A stretch of DNA of 63,949 bases, counting the filler, from Craspedostauros australis (Eukaryota): NCBI GenBank assembly GCA_030167865.1. It is 10 parts of 10 records of this genome, joined end to end, with 100 filler letters (N's around TTAATTAATTAA, not from the genome) between each part and the next. Parts side by side here need not be neighbours in the genome. Positions count along the whole stretch, not along the records: positions 62,711 to 63,949 come from JALAGF010003857.1; 9 more parts are not named here. The stretch is one strand, 5' to 3'. Under the pieces are notes generated by a model. That model did no database searches, was not told where the DNA came from, and worked only from the letters and a program-made list of their open reading frames with translations. The position numbers were made by a program, and so were the translations under genes. Below, piece after piece: positions 39,149 to 63,949 of this stretch (position 1 is its first letter; each line of letters begins with the position of its first letter).

Positions 39149-39521
39149 TGTTGTTGTAATTGATTGTGTTAGAGTGGTGATTAACGAAATGAAATTATTG
39201 TATGCAGGGGGAACTGAAAAAAGGTTTTGGAAGGTGGATTGGATGGCTCGATACACGTTTGTGTCACCCGATTTCCAATGCTATGTCTGTGTGTGCTTGT
39301 TGTGTGTTTGGTTTGGCCATGTTGGTCCGCCAGTCCTATCCTGCGGAGATAGTTCGAAGTAGCGGTGGTGATGTTGGGGGTGTTTGTGTGGCGACGATGG
39401 TGGTGAGTAAAAAGGACATCATTCGCCAGCGGGATTGGAATACACTCTCGTGTGTATTGGTTGGTACTGTCACGGCATGGTGTGCCATGATGTGCCATGA
39501 TGTGTCATGCACCTGCGCCGC

Positions 39522-40832
39522 TTACTTCGTTGGTCGGACCTCCCAGTCGAACTGTATGCTCTCCAGCAACCGGATGCGATGCTGGGACATGGCCGATTGG
39601 CGTCCTTGGAAGAAGAGCTTGTACTGTCGTCGTTGGCACTTGACCCACGTGGCGAGCTTCTTGTCGGTGAAGGTGGAGGGCACGTGGCAGGTGTTGTGCT
39701 GCTGCTTGTACTCCACCAGGGCCGAGTACTTCTCGCACCAGTTGGCTTCGTGCGAGTCCCAGACGAATTCGACGTCGTTGAGGAGCTGCAAGCGCTCGGG
39801 CGTCATGGAGGACGACTGCGAGCTTTGCAGCATCTTGTACTGCCGGCGCTGGCGCTTGACCCAGCGTGCCAGCTGCGGGTTCTTGGGGTACGTGTGGGGG
39901 ACGGCGGAATGGCCGTTCTCGGCGAAAAAGAGTTTGAGCTCCTTGTACCGCGCCGCCCACTTCTCCTCATGGAATGGCTTGAGGTGGGTCATTGTGGTGT
40001 CGACCTTTTTGGTGCTGCCGTTCGCTTTGCTCGTGTCATTGTCGCTGCAGCCGCTGCCGTTGGGGGTGCCGTGGACGCTCTCATCGTTGTGGCTGTCCGC
40101 GCTCGTCTTGGATGACGTGGATAATGAGGAGGAGGAGGAGGATGACGAAGATGTGACCTGCGCGGGGATGGCGGCGGCTGCACGTGTGGAGGACAGTGAT
40201 GATGAGAACACATGTGTCGGTGCCGCCAATGGAGATCCAACGTACGGGGCAGTTCCCATGGATGATGATGCCGATGCGGTCGAAACGATGGTTGCCGATG
40301 ATGACGGGACCTGGTCGGAAACGGACAAGCTCGAGACGCTGTTGTGATGGTCCTCGGTGTGGCCGAACATCATCTGGGGGTGGTACGTCTGCATCAGGAG
40401 GTGATACGAGTTGGCATCGGCGGCAGGCACAACTGCGTTAGAGTCGGGTGAGATCCAATCCAGCGAGCTGGTGCTGCCGTTCATGGCTGCCAGGACGCTG
40501 GGGTCTGCCGCCGACAGAGCGTGGTCAAAGTCGAAGATCTTTGACATGGTGGCAGGTGAGTCGACTGGGAATGGATCGGCACTGGTTGAGTCCATCTCGT
40601 ATGGGTTGTGGCGCTCGGGGATGTGATGCTGATCCACAAGCACCGTCGTCGGCGTGACGAGCGTCGACGACGGCAGTCCTCCCGTGAGCGTGGGAGTCGA
40701 TGGCAGGGACATGGGTGAGAATGCTTCCATGAAGCTGCCTCGAATGGTTGTTCTTGTGCAGTATGGTGACAACGCCAAGGTTGCGATGGCGTTGTCGGTG
40801 TTGCTCTTTTTGCTGGAGACTTCCGTGCACAT
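39522..40832 (-). CDS. Helicase-associated (HA) domain protein, two C-terminal HA repeats, 436 aa (allele A)
   Basis: WAARYKEL...GHSAVP...LARWVKRQRRQY...ERLQLLNDVEFVW and WCEKYSAL...TCHVP...LATWVKCQRRQY...RIRLLESIQFDW; S/T-rich disordered N-terminus. ATG chosen at MCTEVSS. Confidence 0.88.
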   Translation of the reverse strand: MCTEVSSKKSNTDNAIATLALSPYCTRTTIRGSFMEAFSPMSLPSTPTLTGGLPSSTLVTPTTVLVDQHHIPERHNPYEMDSTSADPFPVDSPATMSKIFDFDHALSAADPSVLAAMNGSTSSLDWISPDSNAVVPAADANSYHLLMQTYHPQMMFGHTEDHHNSVSSLSVSDQVPSSSATIVSTASASSSMGTAPYVGSPLAAPTHVFSSSLSSTRAAAAIPAQVTSSSSSSSSSLSTSSKTSADSHNDESVHGTPNGSGCSDNDTSKANGSTKKVDTTMTHLKPFHEEKWAARYKELKLFFAENGHSAVPHTYPKNPQLARWVKRQRRQYKMLQSSQSSSMTPERLQLLNDVEFVWDSHEANWCEKYSALVEYKQQHNTCHVPSTFTDKKLATWVKCQRRQYKLFFQGRQSAMSQHRIRLLESIQFDWEVRPTK

Positions 40833-42027
40833 ATTGATTGATGCTGGTGTTGGTGTTGTTGGTGTTGTTGGTGTTGTTGGTGCTGACAATGGCGATGCCG
40901 TGTGATTTCTTCTGTGATTGTATTTGTTCTGTGGTGTTGTTCTTCTTCTTCTTCTTCGCTGCTTGTTCACGTTGGTGTGCTGCCCAGATTCGAATGGGGA
41001 TTGGCGATGGTGATGATTATTGTGATTGATGATTGATGATTGATGGCGACGGCTGTGGTTTGCAAGGGTAATATAATACGTGCGTTTTTGATTTTTGTGA
41101 TCGTTCAAGTTGTGAGGATTTGTGAGTTGTGGGCAAGATGGAATTGATGGATGTGATGGTGTGTGTTGTTGTCTCTCGCTTGTGTGGCTGTTGCTTCCGC
41201 GGTCGCTCTTTGTGGTGGTGATGGGTGATCACTGGAATGATGTGATGCGCTGCACTGGTGGTTGTGTGGTTGTGTGGTTGTGTGGTTGTGTGGTTGTGTG
41301 GATGTGTTGTTTCCACTGCGATCCTTGTCATCGGTGTTGTTTCTGTCAATTGTGCTTGATTCTGTCAAGTGTTGCTTTCTTCCAAGTACAATTGTACGAG
41401 GACCTAGTACTGCCACGAAAGAGTGGAGCAGTAGTTGCGCGCATTCGTGTGCACTCGTACGGTTTCGATTATCGCTCTGTCGTTGCTTTTCTTCGCTTTC
41501 TCCGTTTCCTTCTTCTGCCCTGGACGACAGCATCGAATGTCGTGATGGGAACCGGCAATGATTGTGACGCCATTGTGTGATTGCGTGTCGGGCGTGATGT
41601 CGTGCGAGCTGCTTGCCTGAGTCTGTTTCGTTTGTTCTTCTCCGAAGCCGCGGCGCAATTCTGCACGGAATTGACATTCGTGATGTGGAGCAAGCTGACA
41701 CTTGGCGCTGCCTTCGCAGAACGGCTAATCGGGTTTATGAGAACCTCTTTGGGCTTAATGACCCTCTCGGATTGGCCTAGAGACCATCAGCGAATGACGT
41801 ATGACACGTACGTAAGTTCAATAGGACTAAAGAAATAGACCCATTCCGAGCGATTCTTCGTGATTGCGCAAGGATGACGCCGCACGCCAATCGTGACATG
41901 ACACGCGATTTCTTCCAAATACCAAATAACCTCACACAAAATCGCGTCGCCCGTACAAAAGCCAAATAACGGAACATCACACCTCCTCAGTCCGCGTGTA
42001 GCCGGAGACGCAACAACGGAGAGATGG

Positions 42028-42051
42028 AGATAGATAGATAGATAGATAGAT
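42028..42051 (+). repeat. (GATA)n microsatellite (also ~53023-53046)
   Basis: Read directly. Confidence 0.9.
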
Positions 42052-44316
42052 CATGGGATGAAGATACCTACGAGCGCAGATGGGATCTCAGCATTGCGCA
42101 TCGGAGGATTTTCTATGAGATGAGACCAAGACGTGCAGAACATGTCCGCATGATGTCTCAAGCTGCAGTCTTAAAGTATAGCAGAGCAGAGTAGGTAGAG
42201 TAGAATGAAACGGTCGTATGAAGTGCCGCTGTGCTATCATGCTCCTGCCCCCTCAGTGCCGAACCGAGTTGTTGGGAGACGAAGCTGGTGAACTGACATG
42301 CAAGCCGATGGAACGCCTCCCAACAGGACCCGCACAAGAATAGTATGGAGAGTCTCACGAGGAGGTGGTCGTTGGCTGGCTTCATGCAAGCCCCATCTTG
42401 GAGACGTGCAGCGAGCGAGAGGAGAACAATGGGAAGAAGCGATGACTGGAGGAAAGAGAGAGCACAACAGAGGTATGAAGATCCATGGAGAGAGAGATTG
42501 GGAGACAGAATGCTGGTACGAATGTACTATTACACCACGCCTGCCATCCTACCGCTGCACTCCATACTCGCACAGCCATCGACGAGAACAACAGAAACAA
42601 GATCCCATCAAAGAGGCGACGAGGAAGGAGAAAAGAAGGAAGAAGGAAGAAGACGAAGAAACAAATGCCAACGGTTGGAGTATTGGGATGGCACCACCAT
42701 CCAGGGTGGCCTGTCTTGGTCAGGAGATCGCTGCTGGTGCATCTGGTTTATCAAGTGTGACAAGAGTTCTACAGGACTCCAGTCATCCATCATCGTGGAG
42801 TGATCTTGGTTCCAGTGCGGTTCTGCACCCCAAGAACCAAAGTGTTAACCTGCTCTTGGCCCTTGGCTCGCTGTTCATGTCCCCCCTCGTGCTCCATTTC
42901 TGGCCGCGGGACGCATCATCGCCCACGCACATCCCTGTCGAGGCGAGAGGGAACATCGCTTCCCGGTCCCTGGCCAACCTCAACCTCTGCTCATTATCTG
43001 CTCCACATCAGGGTTCTGGTTTGACATGTTGGAGGAATGATGTCAGCTCGAAGATTCAAGATACAGCGCACAACTCGTCCGTGGCGAGGTCCCAAGCGCG
43101 CTCCACCATCGCTGGTCCGTGTCTCCAGCGAGGCGCAGAACCGAACCGTGAGAAGGCAAGCGCGGCATTCCAGTGGCCAATGCGATGCTGTTTCCCATGC
43201 GACAATGACTTGCGCCAACAGCTACCGTATCCGCTTTGGCTGCGAACATGACGTCTGCGGCGTTTGTCCCTTTCTGCGTGTCCAAAGTACGAGTGGTGCA
43301 GGTCGACGTGACCGTGGTCCTCCAGAGGAGGCGGTAGAGGTTAGTACAGCGAGGCATTGGTACGTACGGCACCATGGGCATGTGGGTGTCGGTTGCACAA
43401 CACACGGAGCAGATACGGTAAAGGAATTGTGTGGTATCTGTACCTGGACTTCACGAGTAGACTGCTCTTGGCGCCGATCCAATCGTTGCCGCCGCCAAGA
43501 GAGGCAACAAGAAGCATTGTGCGTCAGGTATGCATGATAGTGCCACGTTCTCACAAGCACAATCCCACACCACAACTGCCTTGCTTTGGCAGTTTTGGAA
43601 ACTCAGTTTCTTCAGGCGAACGGTCACACTGGGGAACCATACAACCAGCGGTGCAAGTACGAGTACTTGACGTAGGCGCACCAGTATGTATGGACTGATT
43701 CATGAGAATGGCAGCTCGCGCGGGCAGAAAGGGAGACACATCATCACAGTGCTTACGACAAGTGAGGCCAATGCTCTGATGTGTCATGCGTGCGTGTGCA
43801 AAACGCTGCCGTGGATGTCCCGAACCCACAATGCACTCAGGCATGTGGTACCCCACAACCGGAACACCGACAATGTTGATGGAATCCCTACCAATTTGCT
43901 CGGAGGCAGCGGACAATGGCTCGGGAGCCACGTCAAATCGCATCGAGAACATGGAGATTGGGAAGTTCACTCTGTGCCGCATCACAAGGGAGGCTGATGA
44001 TGGAACAAAGATGAGGAAGGTCGTTGTACCGGCTCATGGCAACGGGGCATCACCTTTGTTTATCCGGACGAGTACTGGTAACACTCAATTTTATCATGAC
44101 ACCATGCAACGGTGGATTAATGGCCTACGTCATTACTCGTGGTACCTCCAGCACCGCTCTGGACGCGCATGTGATGACAATCTTGTACCACCTCCAAGCT
44201 ACTGCCTTGCGTGGGGCGGTGCCATCTATGTGTGGCGTGGTGCGGCGCGAGTATGCATCGTCGTCACTACCCTCTTCGCCAATTCTGTCGTGCCGCCACA
44301 ATCTGCCACATCAGCT

Positions 44317-47300
44317 TCATCGGATGCGACGTCTGCCTCTGGATGTGTCAGACAGACAAAGGGCCATGATGAAGCAACCGGCGCCGAGCAGAAGCGACCC
44401 GGCAGCCATGGTGCCCCAGAAGTAACGCCGCACGAATGCGTCGTCGCTTCCGTTCTCGTTGCTGTTGGTGCCGCTCTTGCTTGTGTTTCTCCGTTCCGCC
44501 GACACCCCGTCACTTGCATCGGAGATACCACGTTTGCCCGATTCGGCGGGCATTGGGAGGTTACGATCAGCATCAGTCGTGATTGTAGCGGCATCAGCAT
44601 CATCACGACTGCGACCATCACCGTTATCGGATTCGGCGTTGTTGGCAGACACGTTGGCAACCGTTGATGACATCGCCTGTGCTCTGTCTGCAATGGAAGA
44701 TGCACCAATTCCACTCTTTCCGCTGGATTTCGTGTCTGCAGCGCCTGCTCCTGTGTTATCTCTCTTTTCTGCAGTCTCTGTGCTGCTCTGGGTTGTTGCT
44801 GTTGCATCGTTGGCGTTGTGTCCGTCGCCTGGCGCTGCGCTCAATTCGGTCAGTGTTGATGGCCGCTTCTCAATGATCTTGGGAGGTTGGATGGAAGATC
44901 CGTCTCCTCTGTTTCCGCCGCCTGGTGTGAATGGGGTGCCTGCAATGCTGCTCATCGCGTCAAAGCCTCTCTTGCCGATGCCCATGGTCGATTGGGAGGC
45001 CCCGTCGTTCCAGTCTTTCTCGCTCTTACCTTCCAAAATAGCGGAATCGAAGAAATTCTCCACCTCCTGGCACGTCAGTCCTTCTCGGCTGATCACTCGC
45101 AGCGCTCCAGTGTCGTATCTCGCAGCATCCTGCTCACGATCGGATTCGTTCATGTGGAATGGAGTGGCGTTGGCTCCGGGCGAGAACATGATCTCAACTC
45201 GGAACCGTCTCTGCAAAGGGATGGTGGTTGTGTGGTTGTTGGATCGAAGTTGGAGCAAGACCAAAGATTTGGTTTGGGATGAGTGTGCCATGTTATAAGT
45301 ATACGTACATATCAGATGTACGAGTTGGGAGCATGGCAGCAAGAAGCACAGGGGGGAACACTTGCAATTCACGTCAGACGAGAGTACTCGGAGACGACAG
45401 CCCCATACAATGTGGCAAACCGCAATGGTGCCATACGATCAAGCCAATGCATCTGAAACTGTGATTGCGGTTGCAGCTGCAAGTTCGACGTTGTTCCAGC
45501 CAACTTACCATATCATCCATCGAACGGCTGGTATCTTCAAACAACCGAAACACAATCTGCGTCAAGTAGCACAGTTCGCGAGTGTTGTTGATGATATCCG
45601 CTCCTTCGTCGGACACGGGCGAACGGATGTCTTCCTCGCCAGCAAATCGCAAGACATTGATCATCGTGTGGAGATGAGATTCGGACGTGAAGTACAGACG
45701 CGTTCGGATGCGTCTCCCCATGGTGTTGATGGGAAGATCCGCCGAGTAATCCATGTTGATCATGTACCGCATGTCAGTCTTGTTGTCGATGCGTGCGATG
45801 TTGAGATCGTACTTGATCTTCTCCAGCAGGGAGCTGCAAATCTTGACCCCCACGCTTCTCTTCTCGTTGATACTGCTTCCGTACTCCTGTGGCACCACGC
45901 AATCCGCCATTGATTTGGCCAACTCGTACAGCTTCTCCAGCGTGTGCGTGAGTCCCAAGTGAGGGTTGTGCAGCACACTACTCGTACAGCGTCACACATA
46001 TAGTATTGTATGTATTGGTGGAAGTTGGCGGGAGAAGTTTGGAGGACACAAGAAGTTGAGTACAATGAAAATGTGACGCACGCTCTCATGGCAGCCATTG
46101 TACGCATGCATGGCACATATTGAGACTCCCCGTTGACATGCAACCATGAACATGACAATGATAGAATCAACAGCAACAGCCGCAGTCACAGCCGCACACA
46201 CACACACACAAGTGCTGCTGGTGTGGCACTTACTCGAAGCGAACGTTGTCATGGACGTCAGGGATACGCGACAGATCAAAGATGTCTTCGTCGGTATCGT
46301 AGAGTCGCTTGTAGATGAACTTCCATCGTTCCGTCAGCTCGAGCAACGTCTCGCCCTTGTACAGCTTCACGCCGCTCAGTGCCACATCGTGCTCGCCATC
46401 GCCTTTCAGTCCCTCGCCGCCTTCGATGCGACGTTCGTCACCGCTGCCCATGAGCCCCAACATCTCCTCCAGCTCCGCGATGAGAAACCCCATCGTCTTG
46501 TAGATCTCCATGAGCGTCGCGCGTGGATTTCCAACTTCGGCGAGGGCATCGCGCATGGAGGTGAGCATGGCGGGGCCGACCAACTGCTCACGATCCTCTT
46601 CCGTTGTCTCGCGGTAGTCGACGTTGCGTTGCAGGTTCTTCGTGATCTTCTCCTTGCATTCGTCCAGCTCCTGCTTGACATCCTTGACGCCGGATGGGTC
46701 CAGCATGTGCATGCTCCCCTTCTCCTTGTGCACCAACGACACCAAGATAGGCGGGATCTCTCCCTCCAGCTCCAACAACCCCTTCGCGAAGGCTGCGGCA
46801 GTCTTCATCACGCGTCCTTCGTCGCTGGTCTTGATCTTCAGATCGTGACGGAAGGTGGAATGCAAGCGCAAGATACCGCCTCCGGCAATGTCGGGGTACA
46901 TGTCGTGTCGGAAACGCTGTCCCAGATGGATGGCCTGCTTCTCACCGAGCTTGGTCAAGTTGCCTCCCCACTTGAGCACCAGCTGGACTTCCGTGGCAGA
47001 GACAGCCCCGGTGGATGCATCCTCCTTCCATTCGCGCGGCTTGATCTGCAATTTGCGATTCAACCCGGTGATCTTCCAACGCTCCAGCACGTCCTTCATG
47101 TGACGCAGCTGATAGACGACCTTGCGGTTGGCCTTCGTGTTGGTGGTGGAGACGGATTCTTCGTCAAGCTCCTGCTCCGTCTTGTTGCGCAGGATGGTGC
47201 GGACGGTGTGCAAGAACTCGTGCATGGGGACCTTGTCCTTGATCTTGAGGTCCTTGCGTGGATTCTCGGCATGGTCGTGGAAGTACTTGAGGATCAACGG

Positions 47301-49399
47301 TTCGGTCATGTTGACCTTGAGCTTTTGCTTGGGCGTGCGGTCGCCATGGCGGATGACGGCAATGACGCAGCGCAACTCTTCCTGGTGTTCGTTGGGTCCG
47401 CACGGCAGGGTTTGGTTGGCCTTCAACTTGGACGTTTCGGAATCTGCGACGGAGGCCTCGGCGGATGGGCAGATGGATGCTGGTTCGGACGTGAGCTGAT
47501 CGGGGATGTCGCGCACAGGGATCGCACCTTCCTCAAGGGTGGTGGCCGCATTGGTGGAAGGTGTGATGGAATGGTCGGATTGCGACATGGCCTCACCATG
47601 GGATGAACCCACCGCCGCTTCGGCGTTGTCAGCATCCTTGCTAGCGGATGTGTCACCTTGCAGCATGTTGGCAAGCCGTGACAGAGTCGTGGTGGCGTGC
47701 TTGTGAAAGGCGCCGAGCTGGTCATCGTCATTGATGTTGGCACTGAGGGTGACCAATGGATCGACGGTCGAGAATCCCTTGAGGTTGTCCGGTTTGACAG
47801 CAGCCAGGATATGTTCCGTCATGATCTGAGCGCAATCCTCATAGTACTTTCTGCATGAATGCATGAGTGCGTGTGTGCGTGTGGGTGGCCGAGCACGTGG
47901 TCACGTGATGAAGAGAGTGGAGTGGAGTAGAAAAGATGAGTACATGAATGCACGAGAGGAGATGGGGCAGAGAGCGAGACGAGGGCGTGATTCTATCCGA
48001 GATCTGCCCATTCGCTGACTTCCATGTTTCACATCTGCTCGTATCCACCAGACACAGGCACAGACACAGACACAGACACGCAATAAGCAACTCCAGCAGG
48101 AACGTACCTGCTGTTCTTGACGAAAGACCACCCGTTGACGTCGCAACAGTAGGACACGACCGAATGGTCTTCCTGCACGCGCAGCAGATCGAAGCCGCAC
48201 ACGAACTGCTTGAACCCCAGCACGATGCGGCGCGCAATCTCCTTCTCGCGCAACGTGAGGATGACGGGGAACCGCACCTCCTTGCCATCGGAATTGCGCT
48301 GCACCTTGCCGTCGACGGTGGGAGATTTGCGCGCCTCGGCGTGTCCGTATTCGGGACCGACGGTGTACATCTTGACGTCCGTGCCTTGCGTTTCAACGAA
48401 CTCCTCGTAGATGTAGCTGCCGTCGCGCCGCACCTCGTTGACGTCGGCGTAGAATTCGGAAGAGCGGTTGCCGATCTTGCGGAAGAGTTTCTTGCAGCCG
48501 CCGCCTGCCGATGTGGGATAGTAGATGGCGATGTTGTGATCATCGGCGTCGACGGGCTTCTCCACGAAGGGCTTGTGCAGAACGATGCCGTTGATTTCAA
48601 TGTGATCGTCGTACTCCGTGACGCAGGGATCCCTGCCACCGTTGCCATCGCCGGTGCCCGTGGAGACGTAATCATCGCGACTGAGGTAGACATGGCGCGG
48701 CACGTCGATGCCCAAGGCCTCGAGGAGATCGTAGGCCTTGCGACGATCCTTGAGCGACTCCTGCATCTCCAGATCGTTGAGGTTGAACGGCTTGCGCAGA
48801 TCGACGTAGGCCTGCGCCTTCTGCAGCGGGTATCCCTTGGAGAAGAAGGCGATGAGGACGTCGCACGTCGGCCATTCCTCGATGGATCGGTTGAGGATGA
48901 TGTCATCAGAGAAAAAAACGACGTGGAACAGGGTTTCGTCGAGGCGGCTGAGGATCTCGGCCATGGGCTTCGATCGCGCCTTCTTGTCCAACGCGCAGAT
49001 GCCCAAGCGGATGCGATCGGGACTTCCGTCTGGCTCGGCCGCAGCGATGTACGGCATGGGTTTGGCGTTGGACTTCTTCTTCATGTGCTGCGGCTTCTTG
49101 AGGATGGGCGTCGGAGAGATGGGCGTGCTGCTCTTGCTGTTGCCCACGCTGCTGGCCGTGCTGTTGCTGTTGCTCTTGGAATGGGATGGGGCAGCAGCGA
49201 AAACGGACTGCTGCTGCTGTTGTTGCTGCTGTTGCTTCTGTTGCTTGGGTGGAGAGGATTGCAGCGTCACACTGGTCGCGGTGGAGGTCTCGGCTTGCTT
49301 CTTCTCTCCGCCATTGTCGTCGTTTTTGCCAATGTTGCCGCCGACCACTGCGGTGACGGCACAAGGGATGCCTTCGGACGGCGTGGAGGGAGTCGTCAT
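44317..49399 (-). CDS. VIP1: Inositol hexakisphosphate / diphosphoinositol-pentakisphosphate kinase (PPIP5K/VIP1), 4 exons (49399-48108, 47850-46234, 45977-45509, 45210-44317), 1423 aa
   Basis: ATP-grasp kinase motifs ([48 protein letters not shown]); His-phosphatase motifs ([31 protein letters not shown]). Three GT-AG introns (257, 256, 298 nt) join in phase: NSR|KYYED, VRFD|VLHN, DDM|RRFRVE. Confidence 0.95.
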
Positions 49400-49847
49400 C
49401 GTGCAACGATGTCCCTGAAACCGACGACTCTACTCTACTCTACTATATTTGTAAGCCGCACGAGTAGGAAGTCAGGCACACATGCAGAAGTATGATACTC
49501 TATGATGCAATAGTTGTCGGTGAATCTCTGTGATGAATGAAGCAGAAAGTGTTCGGCATGGTGTGTGGCAGAATGTGGAACGAGAGGTGAAAACCTGGCG
49601 AAAACGACGAATGAGCGGCGCCGACTACGCCCCACGTCATGGTCAATGCGTTTGTCGCGAACACGACTCAAGCGACCAAAGTTCGCGTTTTGTTTGAGGG
49701 ATGACTCATTTGACTACTTTGAATCTTCCACTCTTCGCTTTCGTGACATCGCAGACCATCGCCACCAAATGACAGCCAAAACAACACGAGACAACCGTGG
49801 TAACGACAAGAACACCAGCAATGGTGACAACGACAGACAGATGATCC

Positions 49848-49908
49848 CAATCACAATCACAATCACAATCACAACCACAACCACAACCACAACCACAACC
49901 ACAATCAT
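49848..49908 (+). repeat. Compound hexamer microsatellite (ACAATC)n(ACAACC)n (also ~60843-60903)
   Basis: Read directly. Confidence 0.9.
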
Positions 49909-50044
49909 AGACACAACGCAAACCCTCTCTGACAAGGCAAGCGACTGCCATTCAAACGCTGACGCTCTCAACCTCATCGTGTGATCACTGATCGACGCAG
50001 AGCTTCATCTTGTGGTTGGTTCTTCATCCAAACAGGGAGAAGAG

Positions 50045-50144: not shown

Positions 50145-50517
50145 TGTTGTTGTAATTGATTGTGTTAGAGTGGTGATTAACGAAATGAAATTATTGTATG
50201 CAGGGGGAACTGAAAAAAGGTTTTGGAAGGTGGATTGGATGGCTCGATACACGTTTGTGTCACCCGATTTCCAATGCTATGTCTGTGTGTGCTTGTTGTG
50301 TGTTTGGTTTGGCCATGTTGGTCCGCCAGTCCTATCCTGCGGAGATAGTTCGAAGTAGCGGTGGTGATGTTGGGGGTGTTTGTGTGGCGACGATGGTGGT
50401 GAGTAAAAAGGACATCATTCGCCAGCGGGATTGGAATACACTCTCGTGTGTATTGGTTGGTACTGTCACGGCATGGTGTGCCATGATGTGCCATGATGTG
50501 TCATGCACCTGCGCCGC

Positions 50518-51828
50518 TTACTTCGTTGGTCGGACCTCCCAGTCGAACTGTATGCTCTCCAGCAACCGGATGCGATGCTGGGACATGGCCGATTGGCGTC
50601 CTTGGAAGAAGAGCTTGTACTGTCGTCGTTGGCACTTGACCCACGTGGCGAGCTTCTTGTCGGTGAAGGTGGAGGGCACGTGGCAGGTGTTGTGCTGCTG
50701 CTTGTACTCCACCAGGGCCGAGTACTTCTCGCACCAGTTGGCTTCGTGCGAGTCCCAGACGAATTCGACGTCGTTGAGGAGCTGCAAGCGCTCGGGCGTC
50801 ATGGAGGACGACTGCGAGCTTTGCAGCATCTTGTACTGCCGGCGCTGGCGCTTGACCCAGCGTGCCAGCTGCGGGTTCTTGGGGTACGTGTGGGGGACGG
50901 CGGAATGGCCGTTCTCGGCGAAAAAGAGTTTGAGCTCCTTGTACCGCGCCGCCCACTTCTCCTCATGGAATGGCTTGAGGTGGGTCATTGTGGTGTCGAC
51001 CTTTTTGGTGCTGCCGTTCGCTTTGCTCGTGTCATTGTCGCTGCAGCCGCTGCCGTTGGGGGTGCCGTGGACGCTCTCATCGTTGTGGCTGTCCGCGCTC
51101 GTCTTGGATGACGTGGATAATGAGGAGGAGGAGGAGGATGACGAAGATGTGACCTGCGCGGGGATGGCGGCGGCTGCACGTGTGGAGGACAGTGATGATG
51201 AGAACACATGTGTCGGTGCCGCCAATGGAGATCCAACGTACGGGGCAGTTCCCATGGATGATGATGCCGATGCGGTCGAAACGATGGTTGCCGATGATGA
51301 CGGGACCTGGTCGGAAACGGACAAGCTCGAGACGCTGTTGTGATGGTCCTCGGTGTGGCCGAACATCATCTGGGGGTGGTACGTCTGCATCAGGAGGTGA
51401 TACGAGTTGGCATCGGCGGCAGGCACAACTGCGTTAGAGTCGGGTGAGATCCAATCCAGCGAGCTGGTGCTGCCGTTCATGGCTGCCAGGACGCTGGGGT
51501 CTGCCGCCGACAGAGCGTGGTCAAAGTCGAAGATCTTTGACATGGTGGCAGGTGAGTCGACTGGGAATGGATCGGCACCGGTTGTGTCCATCTCGTATGG
51601 GTTGTGGCGCTCGGGGATGTGATGTTGATCCACAAGCACCGTCGTTGGCGTGACGAGCGTCGACGACGGCATTCCTCCCGTGAGCGTGGGAGTCGATGGC
51701 AGGGACATGGGTGAGAATGTTTCCATGAAGCTGCCTCGAACGGTTGTTCTTGTGCAGTATGGTGACAGCGCCAAGGTTGCGATGGCGTTGTCGGTGTTGC
51801 TCTTTTTGCTGGAGACTTCCGTGCACAT
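50518..51828 (-). CDS. HA domain protein, 436 aa (allele B)
   Basis: Same as 39522-40832 with 5 amino-acid changes in the N-terminal part. Confidence 0.88.
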   Translation of the reverse strand: MCTEVSSKKSNTDNAIATLALSPYCTRTTVRGSFMETFSPMSLPSTPTLTGGMPSSTLVTPTTVLVDQHHIPERHNPYEMDTTGADPFPVDSPATMSKIFDFDHALSAADPSVLAAMNGSTSSLDWISPDSNAVVPAADANSYHLLMQTYHPQMMFGHTEDHHNSVSSLSVSDQVPSSSATIVSTASASSSMGTAPYVGSPLAAPTHVFSSSLSSTRAAAAIPAQVTSSSSSSSSSLSTSSKTSADSHNDESVHGTPNGSGCSDNDTSKANGSTKKVDTTMTHLKPFHEEKWAARYKELKLFFAENGHSAVPHTYPKNPQLARWVKRQRRQYKMLQSSQSSSMTPERLQLLNDVEFVWDSHEANWCEKYSALVEYKQQHNTCHVPSTFTDKKLATWVKCQRRQYKLFFQGRQSAMSQHRIRLLESIQFDWEVRPTK

Positions 51829-54800
51829 ATTGATTGATGCTGGTGCTGGTGTTGTTGGTGCTGTTGGTGCTGTTGGTGCTGACAATGGCGATGCCGTGTG
51901 TCGTGTGTGTCTTGTGTGGTGCGTGGGCGTGTGATTTCTTCTGTGATTGTATTTGTTCTGTGTTGTTGTTGTTCTTCTTCTTCTTCGCTGCTTGTTCACT
52001 TTGATGTGTTGCCCAGATTCGAATGGGGATTGGCGATGGTGATGATTATTGTGATTGGTGATTGATGATTGATGGCGATGGCTGTGATTTGCAAGTGAAA
52101 TACATGCGTTTTTGATTTTTGTGATCGTTCAAGTTGTGAGGATTTGTGAGTTGTGGGCAAGATGGAATTGATGGAATTGATGGTGTGTGTTGTTGTCTCT
52201 CGCTTGTGTGGCTGTTGCTTCCGCGGTCGCTCTTTGTGGTGGTGGTGATGGGTGATCACCGGAATGATGTGATGCTCTGCACTGGTGGTTGTGTGGATGT
52301 GTTGTTTCCACTGCGATCCTTGTCATCGGTGTTGTTTCTGTCAATTGTGCTTGATTCTGTCAAGTGTTGCTTTCTTCCAAGTACAATTGTACGAGGACCT
52401 AGTACTGCCACGAAAGAGTGGAGCAGTAGTTGCGCGCATTCGTGTGCACTCGTACGGTTTCGATTATCGCTCTGTCGTTGCTTTTCTTCGCTTTCTCCGT
52501 TTCCTTCTTCTGCCCTGGACGACAGCATCGAATGTCGTGATGGGAACCGGCAATGATTGTGACGCCATTGTGTGATTGCGTGTCGGGCGTGATGTCGTGC
52601 GAGCTGCTTGCCTGAGTCTGTTTCGTTTGTTCTTCTCCGAAGCCGCGGCGCAATTCTGCACGGAATTGACATTCGTGATGTGGAGCAAGCTGACACTTGG
52701 CGCTGCCTTCGCAGAACGGCTAATCGGGTTTATGAGAACCTCTTTGGGCTTAATGACCCTCTCGGATTGGCCTAGAGACCATCAGCGAATGACGTATGAC
52801 ACGTACGTAAGTTCAATAGGACTAAAGAAATAGACCCATTCCGAGCGATTCTTCGTGATTGCGCAAGGATGACGCCGCACGCCAATCGTGACATGACACG
52901 CGATTTCTTCCAAATACCAAATAACCTCACACAAAATCGCGTCGCCCGTACAAAAGCCAAATAACGGAACATCACACCTCCTCAGTCCGCGTGTAGCCGG
53001 AGACGCAACAACGGAGAGATGGAGATAGATAGATAGATAGATAGATCATGGGATGAAGATACCTACGAGCGCAGATGGGATCTCAGCATTGCGCATCGGA
53101 GGATTTTCTATGAGATGAGACCAAGACGTGCAGAACATGTCCGCATGATGTCTCAAGCTGCAGTCTTAAAGTATAGCAGAGCAGAGTAGGTAGAGTAGAA
53201 TGAAACGGTCGTATGAAGTGCCGCTGTGCTATCATGCTCCTGCCCCCTCAGTGCCGAACCGAGTTGTTGGGAGACGAAGCTGGTGAACTGACATGCAAGC
53301 CGATGGAACGCCTCCCAACAGGACCCGCACAAGAATAGTATGGAGAGTCTCACGAGGAGGTGGTCGTTGGCTGGCTTCATGCAAGCCCCATCTTGGAGAC
53401 GTGCAGCGAGCGAGAGGAGAACAATGGGAAGAAGCGATGACTGGAGGAAAGAGAGAGCACAACAGAGGTATGAAGATCCATGGAGAGAGAGATTGGGAGA
53501 CAGAATGCTGGTACGAATGTACTATTACACCACGCCTGCCATCCTACCGCTGCACTCCATACTCGCACAGCCATCGACGAGAACAACAGAAACAAGATCC
53601 CATCAAAGAGGCGACGAGGAAGGAGAAAAGAAGGAAGAAGGAAGAAGACGAAGAAACAAATGCCAACGGTTGGAGTATTGGGATGGCACCACCATCCAGG
53701 GTGGCCTGTCTTGGTCAGGAGATCGCTGCTGGTGCATCTGGTTTATCAAGTGTGACAAGAGTTCTACAGGACTCCAGTCATCCATCATCGTGGAGTGATC
53801 TTGGTTCCAGTGCGGTTCTGCACCCCAAGAACCAAAGTGTTAACCTGCTCTTGGCCCTTGGCTCGCTGTTCATGTCCCCCCTCGTGCTCCATTTCTGGCC
53901 GCGGGACGCATCATCGCCCACGCACATCCCTGTCGAGGCGAGAGGGAACATCGCTTCCCGGTCCCTGGCCAACCTCAACCTCTGCTCATTATCTGCTCCA
54001 CATCAGGGTTCTGGTTTGACATGTTGGAGGAATGATGTCAGCTCGAAGATTCAAGATACAGCGCACAACTCGTCCGTGGCGAGGTCCCAAGCGCGCTCCA
54101 CCATCGCTGGTCCGTGTCTCCAGCGAGGCGCAGAACCGAACCGTGAGAAGGCAAGCGCGGCATTCCAGTGGCCAATGCGATGCTGTTTCCCATGCGACAA
54201 TGACTTGCGCCAACAGCTACCGTATCCGCTTTGGCTGCGAACATGACGTCTGCGGCGTTTGTCCCTTTCTGCGTGTCCAAAGTACGAGTGGTGCAGGTCG
54301 ACGTGACCGTGGTCCTCCAGAGGAGGCGGTAGAGGTTAGTACAGCGAGGCATTGGTACGTACGGCACCATGGGCATGTGGGTGTCGGTTGCACAACACAC
54401 GGAGCAGATACGGTAAAGGAATTGTGTGGTATCTGTACCTGGACTTCACGAGTAGACTGCTCTTGGCGCCGATCCAATCGTTGCCGCCGCCAAGAGAGGC
54501 AACAAGAAGCATTGTGCGTCAGGTATGCATGATAGTGCCACGTTCTCACAAGCACAATCCCACACCACAACTGCCTTGCTTTGGCAGTTTTGGAAACTCA
54601 GTTTCTTCAGGCGAACGGTCACACTGGGGAACCATACAACCAGCGGTGCAAGTACGAGTACTTGACGTAGGCGCACCAGTATGTATGGACTGATTCATGA
54701 GAATGGCAGCTCGCGCGGGCAGAAAGGGAGACACATCATCACAGTGCTTACGACAAGTGAGGCCAATGCTCTGATGTGTCATGCGTGCGTGTGCAAAACG

Positions 54801-55311
54801 CTGCCGTGGATGTCCCGAACCCACAATGCACTCAGGCATGTGGTACCCCACAACCGGAACACCGACAATGTTGATGGAATCCCTACCAATTTGCTCGGAG
54901 GCAGCGGACAATGGCTCGGGAGCCACGTCAAATCGCATCGAGAACATGGAGATTGGGAAGTTCACTCTGTGCCGCATCACAAGGGAGGCTGATGATGGAA
55001 CAAAGATGAGGAAGGTCGTTGTACCGGCTCATGGCAACGGGGCATCACCTTTGTTTATCCGGACGAGTACTGGTAACACTCAATTTTATCATGACACCAT
55101 GCAACGGTGGATTAATGGCCTACGTCATTACTCGTGGTACCTCCAGCACCGCTCTGGACGCGCATGTGATGACAATCTTGTACCACCTCCAAGCTACTGC
55201 CTTGCGTGGGGCGGTGCCATCTATGTGTGGCGTGGTGCGGCGCGAGTATGCATCGTCGTCACTACCCTCTTCGCCAATTCTGTCGTGCCGCCACAATCTG
55301 CCACATCAGCT

Positions 55312-58300
55312 TCATCGGATGCGACGTCTGCCTCTGGATGTGTCAGACAGACAAAGGGCCATGATGAAGCAACCGGCGCCGAGCAGAAGCGACCCGGCAG
55401 CCATGGTGCCCCAGAAGTAACGCCGCACGAATGCGTCGTCGCTTCCGTTCTCGTTGCTGTTGGTGCCGCTCTTGCTTGTGTTTCTCCGTTCCGCCGACAC
55501 CCCGTCACTTGCATCGGAGATACCACGTTTGCCCGATTCGGCGGGCATTGGGAGGTTACGATCAGCATCAGTCGTGATTGTAGCGGCATCAGCATCATCA
55601 CGACTGCGACCATCACCGTTATCGGATTCGGCGTTGTTGGCAGACACGTTGGCAACCGTTGATGACATCGCCTGTGCTCTGTCTGCAATGGAAGATGCAC
55701 CAATTCCACTCTTTCCGCTGGATTTCGTGTCTGCAGCGCCTGCTCCTGTGTTATCTCTCTTTTCTGCAGTCTCTGTGCTGCTCTGGGTTGTTGCTGTTGC
55801 ATCGTTGGCGTTGTGTCCGTCGCCTGGCGCTGCGCTCAATTCGGTCAGTGTTGATGGCCGCTTCTCAATGATCTTGGGAGGTTGGATGGAAGATCCGTCT
55901 CCTCTGTTTCCGCCGCCTGGTGTGAATGGGGTGCCTGCAATGCTGCTCATCGCGTCAAAGCCTCTCTTGCCGATGCCCATGGTCGATTGGGAGGCCCCGT
56001 CGTTCCAGTCTTTCTCGCTCTTACCTTCCAAAATAGCGGAATCGAAGAAATTCTCCACCTCCTGGCACGTCAGTCCTTCTCGGCTGATCACTCGCAGCGC
56101 TCCAGTGTCGTATCTCGCAGCATCCTGCTCACGATCGGATTCGTTCATGTGGAATGGAGTGGCGTTGGCTCCGGGCGAGAACATGATCTCAACTCGGAAC
56201 CGTCTCTGCAAAGGGATGGTGGTTGTGTGGTTGTTGGATCGAAGTTGGAGCAAGACCAAAGATTTGGTTTGGGATGAGTGTGCCATGTTATAAGTATACG
56301 TACATATCAGATGTACGAGTTGGGAGCATGGCAGCAAGAAGCACAGGGGGGAACACTTGCAATTCACGTCAGACGAGAGTACTCGGAGACGACAGCCCCA
56401 TACAATGTGGCAAACCGCAATGGTGCCATACGATCAAGCCAATGCATCTGAAACTGTGATTGCGGTTGCAGCTGCAAGTTCGACGTTGTTCCAGCCAACT
56501 TACCATATCATCCATCGAACGGCTGGTATCTTCAAACAACCGAAACACAATCTGCGTCAAGTAGCACAGTTCGCGAGTGTTGTTGATGATATCCGCTCCT
56601 TCGTCGGACACGGGCGAACGGATGTCTTCCTCGCCAGCAAATCGCAAGACATTGATCATCGTGTGGAGATGAGATTCGGACGTGAAGTACAGACGCGTTC
56701 GGATGCGTCTCCCCATGGTGTTGATGGGAAGATCCGCCGAGTAATCCATGTTGATCATGTACCGCATGTCAGTCTTGTTGTCGATGCGTGCGATGTTGAG
56801 ATCGTACTTGATCTTCTCCAGCAGGGAGCTGCAAATCTTGACCCCCACGCTTCTCTTCTCGTTGATACTGCTTCCGTACTCCTGTGGCACCACGCAATCC
56901 GCCATTGATTTGGCCAACTCGTACAGCTTCTCCAGCGTGTGCGTGAGTCCCAAGTGAGGGTTGTGCAGCACACTACTCGTACAGCGTCACACATATAGTA
57001 TTGTATGTATTGGTGGAAGTTGGCGGGAGAAGTTTGGAGGACACAAGAAGTTGAGTACAATGAAAATGTGACGCACGCTCTCATGGCAGCCATTGTACGC
57101 ATGCATGGCACATATTGAGACTCCCCGTTGACATGCAACCATGAACATGACAATGATAGAATCAACAGCAACAGCCGCAGTCACAGCCGCACACACACAC
57201 ACACAAGTGCTGCTGGTGTGGCACTTACTCGAAGCGAACGTTGTCATGGACGTCAGGGATACGCGACAGATCAAAGATGTCTTCGTCGGTATCGTAGAGT
57301 CGCTTGTAGATGAACTTCCATCGTTCCGTCAGCTCGAGCAACGTCTCGCCCTTGTACAGCTTCACGCCGCTCAGTGCCACATCGTGCTCGCCATCGCCTT
57401 TCAGTCCCTCGCCGCCTTCGATGCGACGTTCGTCACCGCTGCCCATGAGCCCCAACATCTCCTCCAGCTCCGCGATGAGAAACCCCATCGTCTTGTAGAT
57501 CTCCATGAGCGTCGCGCGTGGATTTCCAACTTCGGCGAGGGCATCGCGCATGGAGGTGAGCATGGCGGGGCCGACCAACTGCTCACGATCCTCTTCCGTT
57601 GTCTCGCGGTAGTCGACGTTGCGTTGCAGGTTCTTCGTGATCTTCTCCTTGCATTCGTCCAGCTCCTGCTTGACATCCTTGACGCCGGATGGGTCCAGCA
57701 TGTGCATGCTCCCCTTCTCCTTGTGCACCAACGACACCAAGATAGGCGGGATCTCTCCCTCCAGCTCCAACAACCCCTTCGCGAAGGCTGCGGCAGTCTT
57801 CATCACGCGTCCTTCGTCGCTGGTCTTGATCTTCAGATCGTGACGGAAGGTGGAATGCAAGCGCAAGATACCGCCTCCGGCAATGTCGGGGTACATGTCG
57901 TGTCGGAAACGCTGTCCCAGATGGATGGCCTGCTTCTCACCGAGCTTGGTCAAGTTGCCTCCCCACTTGAGCACCAGCTGGACTTCCGTGGCAGAGACAG
58001 CCCCGGTGGATGCATCCTCCTTCCATTCGCGCGGCTTGATCTGCAATTTGCGATTCAACCCGGTGATCTTCCAACGCTCCAGCACGTCCTTCATGTGACG
58101 CAGCTGATAGACGACCTTGCGGTTGGCCTTCGTGTTGGTGGTGGAGACGGATTCTTCGTCAAGCTCCTGCTCCGTCTTGTTGCGCAGGATGGTGCGGACG
58201 GTGTGCAAGAACTCGTGCATGGGGACCTTGTCCTTGATCTTGAGGTCCTTGCGTGGATTCTCGGCATGGTCGTGGAAGTACTTGAGGATCAACGGTTCGG

Positions 58301-60394
58301 TCATGTTGACCTTGAGCTTTTGCTTGGGCGTGCGGTCGCCATGGCGGATGACGGCAATGACGCAGCGCAACTCTTCCTGGTGTTCGTTGGGTCCGCACGG
58401 CAGGGTTTGGTTGGCCTTCAACTTGGACGTTTCGGAATCTGCGACGGAGGCCTCGGCGGATGGGCAGATGGATGCTGGTTCGGACGTGAGCTGATCGGGG
58501 ATGTCGCGCACAGGGATCGCACCTTCCTCAAGGGTGGTGGCCGCATTGGTGGAAGGTGTGATGGAATGGTCGGATTGCGACATGGCCTCACCATGGGATG
58601 AACCCACCGCCGCTTCGGCGTTGTCAGCATCCTTGCTAGCGGATGTGTCACCTTGCAGCATGTTGGCAAGCCGTGACAGAGTCGTGGTGGCGTGCTTGTG
58701 AAAGGCGCCGAGCTGGTCATCGTCATTGATGTTGGCACTGAGGGTGACCAATGGATCGACGGTCGAGAATCCCTTGAGGTTGTCCGGTTTGACAGCAGCC
58801 AGGATATGTTCCGTCATGATCTGAGCGCAATCCTCATAGTACTTTCTGCATGAATGCATGAGTGCGTGTGTGCGTGTGGGTGGCCGAGCACGTGGTCACG
58901 TGATGAAGAGAGTGGAGTGGAGTAGAAAAGATGAGTACATGAATGCACGAGAGGAGATGGGGCAGAGAGCGAGACGAGGGCGTGATTCTATCCGAGATCT
59001 GCCCATTCGCTGACTTCCATGTTTCACATCTGCTCGTATCCACCAGACACAGGCACAGACACAGACACAGACACGCAATAAGCAACTCCAGCAGGAACGT
59101 ACCTGCTGTTCTTGACGAAAGACCACCCGTTGACGTCGCAACAGTAGGACACGACCGAATGGTCTTCCTGCACGCGCAGCAGATCGAAGCCGCACACGAA
59201 CTGCTTGAACCCCAGCACGATGCGGCGCGCAATCTCCTTCTCGCGCAACGTGAGGATGACGGGGAACCGCACCTCCTTGCCATCGGAATTGCGCTGCACC
59301 TTGCCGTCGACGGTGGGAGATTTGCGCGCCTCGGCGTGTCCGTATTCGGGACCGACGGTGTACATCTTGACGTCCGTGCCTTGCGTTTCAACGAACTCCT
59401 CGTAGATGTAGCTGCCGTCGCGCCGCACCTCGTTGACGTCGGCGTAGAATTCGGAAGAGCGGTTGCCGATCTTGCGGAAGAGTTTCTTGCAGCCGCCGCC
59501 TGCCGATGTGGGATAGTAGATGGCGATGTTGTGATCATCGGCGTCGACGGGCTTCTCCACGAAGGGCTTGTGCAGAACGATGCCGTTGATTTCAATGTGA
59601 TCGTCGTACTCCGTGACGCAGGGATCCCTGCCACCGTTGCCATCGCCGGTGCCCGTGGAGACGTAATCATCGCGACTGAGGTAGACATGGCGCGGCACGT
59701 CGATGCCCAAGGCCTCGAGGAGATCGTAGGCCTTGCGACGATCCTTGAGCGACTCCTGCATCTCCAGATCGTTGAGGTTGAACGGCTTGCGCAGATCGAC
59801 GTAGGCCTGCGCCTTCTGCAGCGGGTATCCCTTGGAGAAGAAGGCGATGAGGACGTCGCACGTCGGCCATTCCTCGATGGATCGGTTGAGGATGATGTCA
59901 TCAGAGAAAAAAACGACGTGGAACAGGGTTTCGTCGAGGCGGCTGAGGATCTCGGCCATGGGCTTCGATCGCGCCTTCTTGTCCAACGCGCAGATGCCCA
60001 AGCGGATGCGATCGGGACTTCCGTCTGGCTCGGCCGCAGCGATGTACGGCATGGGTTTGGCGTTGGACTTCTTCTTCATGTGCTGCGGCTTCTTGAGGAT
60101 GGGCGTCGGAGAGATGGGCGTGCTGCTCTTGCTGTTGCCCACGCTGCTGGCCGTGCTGTTGCTGTTGCTCTTGGAATGGGATGGGGCAGCAGCGAAAACG
60201 GACTGCTGCTGCTGTTGTTGCTGCTGTTGCTTCTGTTGCTTGGGTGGAGAGGATTGCAGCGTCACACTGGTCGCGGTGGAGGTCTCGGCTTGCTTCTTCT
60301 CTCCGCCATTGTCGTCGTTTTTGCCAATGTTGCCGCCGACCACTGCGGTGACGGCACAAGGGATGCCTTCGGACGGCGTGGAGGGAGTCGTCAT
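55312..60394 (-). CDS. VIP1: PPIP5K/VIP1, second copy (exons 60394-59103, 58845-57229, 56972-56504, 56205-55312)
   Basis: ORF-track translations identical to the first copy at offset 10995. Confidence 0.93.
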
Positions 60395-61039
60395 CGTGCA
60401 ACGATGTCCCTGAAACCGACGACTCTACTCTACTCTACTATATTTGTAAGCCGCACGAGTAGGAAGTCAGGCACACATGCAGAAGTATGATACTCTATGA
60501 TGCAATAGTTGTCGGTGAATCTCTGTGATGAATGAAGCAGAAAGTGTTCGGCATGGTGTGTGGCAGAATGTGGAACGAGAGGTGAAAACCTGGCGAAAAC
60601 GACGAATGAGCGGCGCCGACTACGCCCCACGTCATGGTCAATGCGTTTGTCGCGAACACGACTCAAGCGACCAAAGTTCGCGTTTTGTTTGAGGGATGAC
60701 TCATTTGACTACTTTGAATCTTCCACTCTTCGCTTTCGTGACATCGCAGACCATCGCCACCAAATGACAGCCAAAACAACACGAGACAACCGTGGTAACG
60801 ACAAGAACACCAGCAATGGTGACAACGACAGACAGATGATCCCAATCACAATCACAATCACAATCACAACCACAACCACAACCACAACCACAACCACAAT
60901 CATAGACACAACGCAAACCCTCTCTGACAAGGCAAGCGACTGCCATTCAAACGCTGACGCTCTCAACCTCATCGTGTGATCACTGATCGACGCAGAGCTT
61001 CATCTTGTGGTTGGTTCTTCATCCAAACAGGGAGAAGAG

Positions 61040-62610: not shown

Positions 62611-62710
62611 NNNNNNNNNNNNNNNNNNNNNNNNNNNNNNNNNNNNNNNNNNNNTTAATTAATTAANNNNNNNNNNNNNNNNNNNNNNNNNNNNNNNNNN
62701 NNNNNNNNNN
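62611..62710. other. Artificial contig spacer
   Basis: N44-TTAATTAATTAA-N44. Confidence 0.98.
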
Positions 62711-63949
62711 AGCGTTTGCACGGGCTGTGCTAGGAGCATCAATCGGCACACCGCCGCGCACCAGTGTCACTTCGCAGACAGCGGATTCACTCACAACGGC
62801 ATCTCCTACCAACCATGCCACACCCGATACCACAAGCTGTGCTGCCGAGCCGGACCTCCCTTCCGCACGCGCCTCCGCAATCATAAGGGCCTGATGTTGC
62901 CACCCAACCTCAGCATACTGGGTCTCTTTGTCTGTGAGGCATGCACGGTCCGAGTGCACCTCCAGCGGGAGCTGGTCTCCAGCCCCACAGACTATCACCT
63001 CCTCCGCTTGGAACGTATGCGCATCATTGACATGGCACACAACTGGGCGGCGGGCACGCTCACCACCTACAGCAGCAAGATTCAGGTGTTGCGCAAGTTC
63101 GGTCTACAGTACGGCATTCCGACTATGCAACCGCCCGACATCCAATCGCCGCCCTGCTCCGACACGATTCCGATCATGTGGGCGCAGGAGCACTACGCCA
63201 CGCAGGCGCCCTCTCGTAAGAACACGCTCGACGCCCAGACCATCAAGTTCAGTACCGTGCGTGGGCTACGCAGCGCGGCATCGGCCTTCGGCATGTGGAA
63301 TATGTGCATCGCGCATCCCGAACGCGCTATGCTCGACGCCAAACAACGACCCATCACCGTTGACACATGCCTCCCGACGGACCATCTCGGGTATTCGATG
63401 CTGACACAGGGCATGCGCACACGGCTCGGTGAAGACTCGCGGCCCTCAGCTGCCTTGCTTTCTCGTCATGTCCACTTTATGGACCGAAGCTTCCTCCACC
63501 AATACCAACATGCAGTCACGCCACAACAGCGGCGGACAGCAGCAATGGCGGGCGTCATCAACCTCATGGGCTGGCTGGGATGGCTACGGGCTGCGGAAAC
63601 CTTTGGTATTTCGTGGTCGGATGTCACCATTCTCGACCCACGCGACGCCAGCAACAACGACCTCCCACCGAACACAGGTGCAGTACTGCTACGCCTGGCC
63701 ATGCAGACGAAGTCCGATCGCAGTCGGCAAGCCGACGTCGTCATCGCCTTCCGCACCTCGTCAGGTCTCAGTCTCGGCGACTGGATGCTTCGCGCGCGAA
63801 CGGAGCGAGATCACCACGTCCCAACGGACCTCGTGGCTCACCATCCCTCGGGACAGCCATGGACATCGCAGTTCTACCGCACGACGTTCGTGTATCCATC
63901 CCTGCTGGAGCAACAACAACGCGGCGACACCTTTCTACGGTCGGCCATC
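62711..63949 (+). mobile_element. Tyrosine recombinase ORF with N-terminal PHD-like Zn finger (fragment of a DIRS/Ngaro- or Crypton-like element); partial at both ends
   Basis: My translation from 62711 gives 413 codons with no stop: SVCTGC...HQCH...QPCHTRYHKLCC...FVCEAC...LERMRIID...WAAGTLTTY...STVRGLRSA...GMRTRLG...GWLRAAETF (R at 63587)...QTKSD (K at 63710)...GQPWTSQFYR. Confidence 0.8.

Follow-up and report, generated by a model that had tools for sequence, protein, structure and literature searches.

In retrotransposons of the DIRS order it is poorly known how the downstream, overlapping open reading frame (ORF) of the tyrosine recombinase (YR) is expressed and how insertion is guided. 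The window analysed here, a stretch of 63,949 nt from the diatom Craspedostauros australis (GCA_030167865.1) made of 10 joined parts, ends with a contig that bears on both questions. A preliminary description of this contig had proposed an intact tyrosine recombinase of a young mobile element, fused to a PHD-like zinc finger that could read histone H3 and steer integration by chromatin state. Is the frame such a recombinase, to which kind of element does it belong, how is it expressed, and what may its finger do? The family is suited to exact tests, as a predicted splice donor and acceptors are conserved across dozens of elements and the zinc finger of the integrase is separable.

The recombinase frame and its copies

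Translation of the contig C3857 (JALAGF010003857.1, 1,239 nt) gave, as described previously, one stop-free frame on the + strand that takes up the entire contig and encodes 413 residues. The finger ligands (C3, C6, C19, C36, H41, C44, C75, and C78) and the motifs LRxxE (here LRAAE, with R293 at 63587-63589) and TKS (K334 at 63710-63712) were found at the places claimed for them (Table 1). The ORF does not begin with the finger, as had been supposed: it is cut at both ends, and in sibling copies it continues for 18 codons on the 5′ side, up to a predicted splice acceptor, and for 76 codons on the 3′ side, up to its stop. The term intact therefore applies to these 413 codons; beyond the contig ends this copy is not readable. 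The preliminary description had overlooked the overlap with Pol, in which the first two cysteines of the finger are encoded, as well as the absent start codon and the splice signals.

Table 1. Features of the contig and of the adjoining linker, in coordinates of the window.
Feature	Position	Strand	Remarks
Artificial linker	62611..62710		N44-12nt-N44; the sequence 5′ of the linker is not a neighbour of the element
Finger-YR ORF, residues 1-413	62711..63949	+	Inner piece of the YR ORF
Pol ORF tail, last six codons and TAG stop (62731-62733)	62713..62733	+	Overlaps YR; YR frame = Pol frame +1
C4HC3 zinc finger, likely PHD-like fold	62717..62944	+	C-x2-C-x12-C-x16-C-x4-H-x2-C-x28-F-x-C-x2-C; hairpin insert between Cys3 and Cys4
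Two conserved helices, residues 76-84 and 92-111	62936..63043	+	Directly after the finger; near-invariant Arg/Glu
Helical region at the position of the YR core-binding domain, residues ~114-240	63050..63430	+	Assigned by position and by whole-chain Foldseek matches to XerH/Cre
YR catalytic domain, N-terminal part, residues 243-413	63437..63949	+	Arg I and Lys inside; HxxR, second His, and Tyr past the contig end

The ORF is a tyrosine recombinase by its fold and catalytic residues, in agreement with the first proposal. A full sibling YR was modelled (pLDDT 90) and its best fold matches were XerA (Z 15.0, rmsd 3.0, 166 aligned) and Cre (Z 13.9), with 22 chains at Z>=8 and Foldseek matches to XerH/Cre at E 1e-4. 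Pfam and PDB sequence searches detected no YR or PHD match above threshold, so the recombinase was missed by sequence searches alone and found by structure comparison. Among 121 aligned proteins the catalytic residues R293 (120), K334 (121), H428 (87), R431 (117), H457 (118), and Y473 (117) were kept. The HxxR and Tyr motifs, which had been expected past the contig end, were both found in sibling copies: in the 13 loci of the own genome HxxR was intact in 11, with Gln in 2, and the Tyr motif was present in 10, the other 3 being cut by contig ends.

The search of the own genome detected 27 matches, of which 23, on 20 contigs, constitute the family of the element (E<=3e-29), some of these contigs being pieces or haplotigs of one copy; the remaining 4 belong to a distant second family (22% identity). 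At the DNA level the contig shares 68-95% identity with the other assembled copies, except one (L017, identical over the first 513 nt), and the element could thus be called young only in part. More widely, the family comprises 875 representatives at E<=0.001 and, when grouped at 50% identity, 569 clusters (E<=1e-10). Relatives that were looked up carry only the names “hypothetical protein” or “integrase”; this is a large family, yet invisible to Pfam and nearly all unnamed, and hence missed by annotation pipelines. Compared with sibling copies, dN/dS was 0.07-0.19 in the finger (usable in 4 of 5 pairs) and 0.04-0.10 in the rest; together with the 23 genome matches and the 875 representatives, these values show that the ORF is more than a chance frame.

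Fold and possible role of the zinc finger

The finger is an old, family-wide feature and not a one-off fusion. Counting at each column only those of 260 homologues that span it, the ligands were conserved in 87% (C1, n=61), 87% (C2, n=92), 94% (C3, n=118), 97% (C4, n=147), 96% (His, n=156), 97% (C6, n=159), 97% (C7, n=196), and 98% (C8, n=197). This count is unbiased, while the invariance seen in alignment A4, which was chosen by the ligand pattern, is circular; one other set was selected on the last Cys pair, and 23 of the 80 metagenome loci, which fell outside the strict C4HC3 pattern, were dropped.

The finger modelled alone (pLDDT 94) found its best matches among 48,161 chains in the Pygo PHD (Z 4.2, rmsd 1.9 Å, 51 residues), followed by BPTF, Pygo2, Rco1, and CHD4, a Z of ~4 being within the range reachable by unrelated models. 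The PHD fingers of Pygo, BPTF, Rco1, CHD4, and NSD match it with an rmsd of 1.9-2.2 Å over ~51 residues and share its C4HC3 ligand order, its Tyr-His pair, and its aromatic residue two positions ahead of Cys7, but differ in that the finger described here has a 16-residue insert between Cys3 and Cys4, a basic surface and non-conserved reader residues, and scores below the Pfam thresholds. Both the four-residue Cys4-His spacing and the aromatic residue ahead of Cys7 fit a PHD. In the wide fold search, ranks 1-17 were PHD-bearing chains, some of whose identities we presume. Foldseek gave nothing for the finger at E<=0.001, and an Atlas search with the finger alone gave no usable match. The commonest Pfam match was PHD_NSD (14 of 47, below threshold); the best PHD-family E value was 0.0027, and those of PF00628 were 0.022-0.24. 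As the Cys3-Cys4 spacing is mostly 16-17 residues instead of the short spacing of canonical PHD fingers, and as the Pfam PHD scores are below threshold, the finger is termed PHD-like. Despite the low scores, the uniform list of matches and the ligand order make a cross-brace PHD-like fold likely, as first suggested.

On the first proposal, the finger would recognise H3K4me0/me3 or another mark on histone tails and thereby direct integration by the YR, in the way of chromovirus chromodomains. Among its nearest structures are the H3-binding PHD fingers of Pygo, BPTF, CHD4, and ATXR5, the finger is under purifying selection, the element also carries a DNMT-like domain, and one solo unit lies inside another repeat while some copies are nested with other elements, all of which would suit a chromatin reader. 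PHD fingers that read H3K4me3 have a cage Trp before the aromatic-His pair and a Met or aromatic residue before Cys3, and those that read H3K4me0 have an acidic residue just before Cys1 and after Cys3. In the family, the six commonest residues at the cage position (before Tyr-His), which account for 40 of 47 fingers, are all non-aromatic; an acidic residue within the six positions before Cys1 was found in 6 of 47, while Lys or Arg occupies position -4 in 41 of 47; and in most fingers Cys3 is followed by a residue other than Asp. In addition, the 16-residue insert takes the place of the short Cys3-Cys4 knuckle, the mean net charge of +5.1 disfavours binding of a basic tail, and the insertion sites (see below) already show a DNA preference (AAnC) that requires no chromatin reader. 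A complex prediction of the finger with the host H3 tail (30 residues, alignment not used) scored 0.00 and has no bearing either way. Histone-guided integration is thus unlikely and, judged from these residues, the finger probably does not read histones by the usual rules.

Considering the non-conserved reader residues, the charge, and several invariant Arg residues, a role in contacting DNA or other subunits is favoured over H3 reading; tentatively, the finger may be a basic structural N-terminal module that makes such contacts in the synapse. If it binds DNA, the PHD fold would have been reused for recombination; if it read chromatin, it would be the YR counterpart of chromovirus targeting. 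A bolder reading is that of a widespread, undescribed YR lineage in which one Gag half is spliced either to a dead DNMT-RT-RNase H or to the PHD-YR, with the finger and the dead DNMT acting as non-canonical readers of chromatin or methylated DNA that choose the insertion sites, which would make this the first chromatin-reading YR integrase; we regard it as somewhat more doubtful still than histone reading.

The Cys/His cluster might instead be a RING variant or another treble-clef finger (for instance, E2-binding), as hinted by weak profile matches to RLIM (E 0.35) and Midline-1 (E 0.057) and by scattered weak Pfam matches to C1 and RING families. Among the best 50 rows of the wide fold search, however, 31 had PHD in the title and none RING, and in a second fold comparison the single RING row reached Z 2.3 vs 4.3 for the Pygo PHD; the prevalence of PHD_NSD among the Pfam matches and the spacing rules given above also argue for the PHD-like fold, so that a RING-type finger is quite improbable. 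In the second family (L038, which is contig C3648, and also L034-L036) a related N-terminal Cys cluster has Cys in place of the His; it is weakly related to the finger (hhalign probability 47, E 2e-4).

Expression of the recombinase

No conserved start codon was found ahead of the finger in the own or the metagenome loci. About 20 codons before the finger there is a conserved, predicted phase-1 splice acceptor, and in 12 of 12 own loci printed a branch-like word and a pyrimidine tract precede a YAG situated two bases before a conserved Trp codon of the YR frame. The acceptor was evaluated in 80 metagenome loci and one own copy, 54 of which (of 81) could be anchored, leaving 43 distinct elements after removal of near-duplicates. 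AG occurred exactly at the acceptor in 29 of the 43, as YAG in 27 of them; when an in-frame shift of up to 6 nt is allowed, 37 had it, and 6 had no in-frame AG near the site. Within the 38 nt upstream of the acceptor 13 AG were counted, vs 26, 74, 72, 68, and 52 in five control zones.

A matching donor is predicted in gag, where the phase-1 sequence AG|GT stands at one aligned mid-gag position in 14 of the 16 gag ORFs, or in 10 of the 12 distinct ones, vs ~0.04 expected from codon use, the other two of the 16 having no GT; one of the original 17 ORFs (L105) was dropped as not gag. Since the elements are related, p-values for these splice signals overstate their independence. In the first ~900 nt aligned no conserved donor was found, and the candidates within the A repeat were discarded because their phase was wrong. 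Donor and acceptor phases matched in the three own copies checked (L026, L027, and L030): in L026 and L027 the predicted first exon contributes 1,456 nt of coding sequence and is followed by an intron of ~4.2 kb, while L030 has the same phase but a stop inside the predicted exon.

These signals strongly suggest that the phase-1 donor, after ~485 codons of gag, would be joined to the YR acceptor across the ~4.2-kb intron, which would yield a Gag(N)-finger-YR protein of ~990 aa. This donor is probably used a second time, with a phase-1 acceptor at the Pol start, where a YAG in this phase was found in 16 of 16 loci at variable positions, a count that has no control; Pol would then probably be a spliced Gag fusion as well, and alternative splicing would replace frameshifting. 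In L111, L118, L141/L143, L154, and L114 a GTAAG directly follows the candidate Pol acceptor, so that a donor is recreated, as in recursive splicing, and could route to the YR acceptor.

Alternatively, the YR could be produced by a +1 frameshift from Pol or from a non-AUG start, the splice-like signals being by-products of overlapping frames. In 12 of 12 own loci printed the YR overlaps the Pol tail in the +1 frame, and Pol and YR are fused in frame in P0128 and P0074 as well as in L017 (contig C5791), where a 25-nt deletion in the Pol tail produced a single frame and left the acceptor in place; such fusions fit either frameshifting or simple mutation. In fungal Ngaro elements the YR is in frame or frameshifted, according to the text available of one account (PMC3783388). 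Codon use at the acceptor argues for splicing instead. Arg in the Pol frame is encoded there by AGR in 25 of 27 cases, vs 83 of 550 elsewhere in the same ORFs, and Ser by AGC in 4 of 4, although AG is required by neither protein frame, which counts against a by-product of the overlap; besides, gag has a conserved donor in this phase, and past the acceptor the Pol tail remains conserved as far as its own stop. Production of the YR by splicing to Gag is therefore likely, and frameshifting improbable. A 17-nt pattern of the gag-YR exon junction matched the genome once; as the flanks are unrelated to the element, this match was discarded as chance and not taken as a spliced DNA copy. The gag-Pol junction pattern had no matches in the genome (control, 1), and a search of weak power detected no long Gag-YR fusion protein in the database. 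The model as a whole, a split-repeat YR element with a spliced Gag-finger-YR protein whose finger would contact DNA or subunits, is fairly probable, with less assurance than its splicing component.

Anatomy of the element, its insertion sites, and its relatives

The contig represents part of a single copy of a multi-copy YR retrotransposon with split direct repeats. The length of the element, ~8.9 kb, was pieced together from overlapping contigs, none of which spans it whole. The features looked for in such an element, namely an RT ORF, RNase H, gag, and split repeats, were detected among the 20 contigs of the family, in support of the proposed DIRS-order retrotransposon. On the longer contigs Gag (~765 aa), Pol (~1,140 codons), and YR are all on one strand, and the layout is A1(~550 nt)-gag-pol-YR-B1(184 nt)-A2-spacer(~31 nt)-B2; the B1-A2 junction after the YR is present in L018 and L024 and the A2-spacer-B2-flank in L041, L042, and L052, and solo A-B units were found at L045, L049, and L054. 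No long inverted repeats were detected in 11 related loci, and the ends are direct repeats, unlike those of DIRS1-like elements.

Gag was assigned by its position, a Cauli_VI match (2.3e-6), and Cys/His clusters. Gag ORFs (e.g., L026:102-2456) contain a conserved N-terminal C-C-C-H cluster and a C-terminal C-x2-C…H…C knuckle, and some also have an RNase H1 hybrid-binding domain (Cauli_VI); the N-terminal cluster and this domain would be carried into spliced fusions. In Pol, the RT was identified by profile (Pfam RVT_1, 5e-7; Ty3 RT, 7e-6) and the RNase H by conserved acidic motifs only. The active-site motif of the RT is HCDD (e.g., L026:2447-5881) and in relatives FVDD, HVDD, MVDD, or HIDD, not YxDD. 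Homology to C5 cytosine methyltransferases was detected in the N-terminal ~300 residues of Pol (HhaI, E 1.8e-5), with PF00145 in 6 of 17 Pol N-termini (best 1.9e-7) and in none of the own-genome rows alone; a word search with this region gave no homologue. Inspection of the 17 aligned sequences by eye showed no catalytic Pro-Cys motif, and CpG is not depleted in the element (o/e ~1.0). After the RNase H there is a conserved domain of ~180 aa with W-x-PPP and xIPR motifs, which had no Pfam or PDB match and may resemble the inactive, Dam-like MT of DIRS elements; a Dam-like domain at this place would set PAT-like elements apart from Ngaro. In the second family (L038, L034-L036) gag and pol form one frame split by single stops, and the Pol start is DNMT-like by eye.

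At the end of the 15 distinct 5′ flanks there is an AAnC-like word (A at -4 in 14, A at -3 in 12, and C at -1 in 13) that resembles the 3′ end of the element itself, AGCC, while 13 distinct 3′ flanks had no clear consensus. A short shared core (AAnC/AGCC) would fit use by a tyrosine recombinase. By analogy with known YR elements, the cDNA would be circularised via the split repeats and the YR would recombine the B-A junction, ending in AGCC, with AAnC-like targets. An empty-site allele, sought for two solo units, was not found, and these units do not fix a target duplication. That the locus is a domesticated host gene or a Crypton-like DNA transposon, a YR without RT, can be practically dismissed in view of the 20 contigs, the gag, the split repeats, the RT-bearing Pol ORF that lies upstream of and overlaps the YR, and the dispersed insertions evidenced by distinct flanks on both sides.

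The published systems compared here are cited from the portions of their texts that were available. The A1…B1-A2-B2 layout is that of PAT and Ngaro elements (PMC4157794, PMC6681497), and solo AB units are known in the Ngaros of Cafeteria (PMC8547959). The element is a variant of this PAT/Ngaro type: it shares with PAT-like elements (TOC3-form) and Ngaro the presence of Gag, RT-RH, and YR on one strand, the repeats downstream of the YR, and the HxxR and Tyr motifs. In the portions available of these three accounts there is no PHD-fold finger on the YR, DNMT-like domain in Pol, or conserved donor and acceptor. Ngaro and PAT-like families also occur in Ectocarpus (PMC12477816, PMC3145265), and further general background is found in PMC3212892, PMC6338049, and PMC3266345.

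Individual features have counterparts elsewhere. The ALOG-type DIRS elements of Ectocarpus encode a YR with an N-terminal FCS-type Zn ribbon and an inactive adenine methylase (PMC3537659) and are similar in being YR elements of a stramenopile with an N-terminal zinc module on the YR; they differ in that the finger described here is an eight-ligand C4HC3 finger without ALOG (PF04852, 0 of 101 members at E<=0.1). Among Pfam-rich eukaryotic clusters of the Atlas, one of ALOG-YR proteins came closest in its features (score 0.92, 156 features), a match to be taken as a lead only. SymbioDIRS-Dnmt3 belongs, like this family, to the DIRS order and has A-coding-B-A-B repeats, a C5-DNMT in Pol, and a separate YR ORF, but its key DNMT residues are conserved (PMC5890265), whereas here the domain matches HhaI-type enzymes and lacks Pro-Cys, with no CpG deficit. 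An inactive MT has been described in DIRS elements (PMC4738411). EpiLTRs are LTR elements with chromodomains and dual methyltransferases with conserved catalytic motifs (bioRxiv 10.64898/2026.05.21.726589); they likewise stack methyltransferase domains with a chromatin-type domain, but here the domains look degenerate and the Dam-like one is putative, and the available EpiLTR text contains neither “diatom” nor a PHD finger. PHD fingers are present in other mobile elements, such as the Ginger1 transposase (PMC2836005) and a Gypsy of Chlamydomonas (PMC9940879). A full-text literature search found no paper that describes a PHD-fold finger on the YR of a DIRS-order element, the anatomy of diatom PAT/Ngaro elements, or Gag-YR splicing, although Repbase, reviews, and supplements may hold such elements. 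Within this scope, the PHD-like finger on the integrase, the degenerate DNMT-like domain, and the probable alternative splicing are new for a split-repeat YR family.

Some additional observations were made on single copies. The loci L018, L026, L032, and L039-L043 form a subfamily with 100% identical repeats and different flanks, which suggests recent activity. In L027, from ~8200, the 3′ repeat is broken by another insertion with an ORF on the opposite strand that is Copia RT-like by eye. The metagenome contigs L100, L115, L143, and L111 have identical ends of 111-127 nt and were assembled as circles, which may reflect repeat collapse or circular intermediates. Elsewhere in the window, 39149-50044 and 50145-61039 are near-identical contigs (100% over 8,755 nt), that is, duplicated haplotigs, which carry a PPIP5K/VIP1 gene and a gene with a helicase-associated domain.
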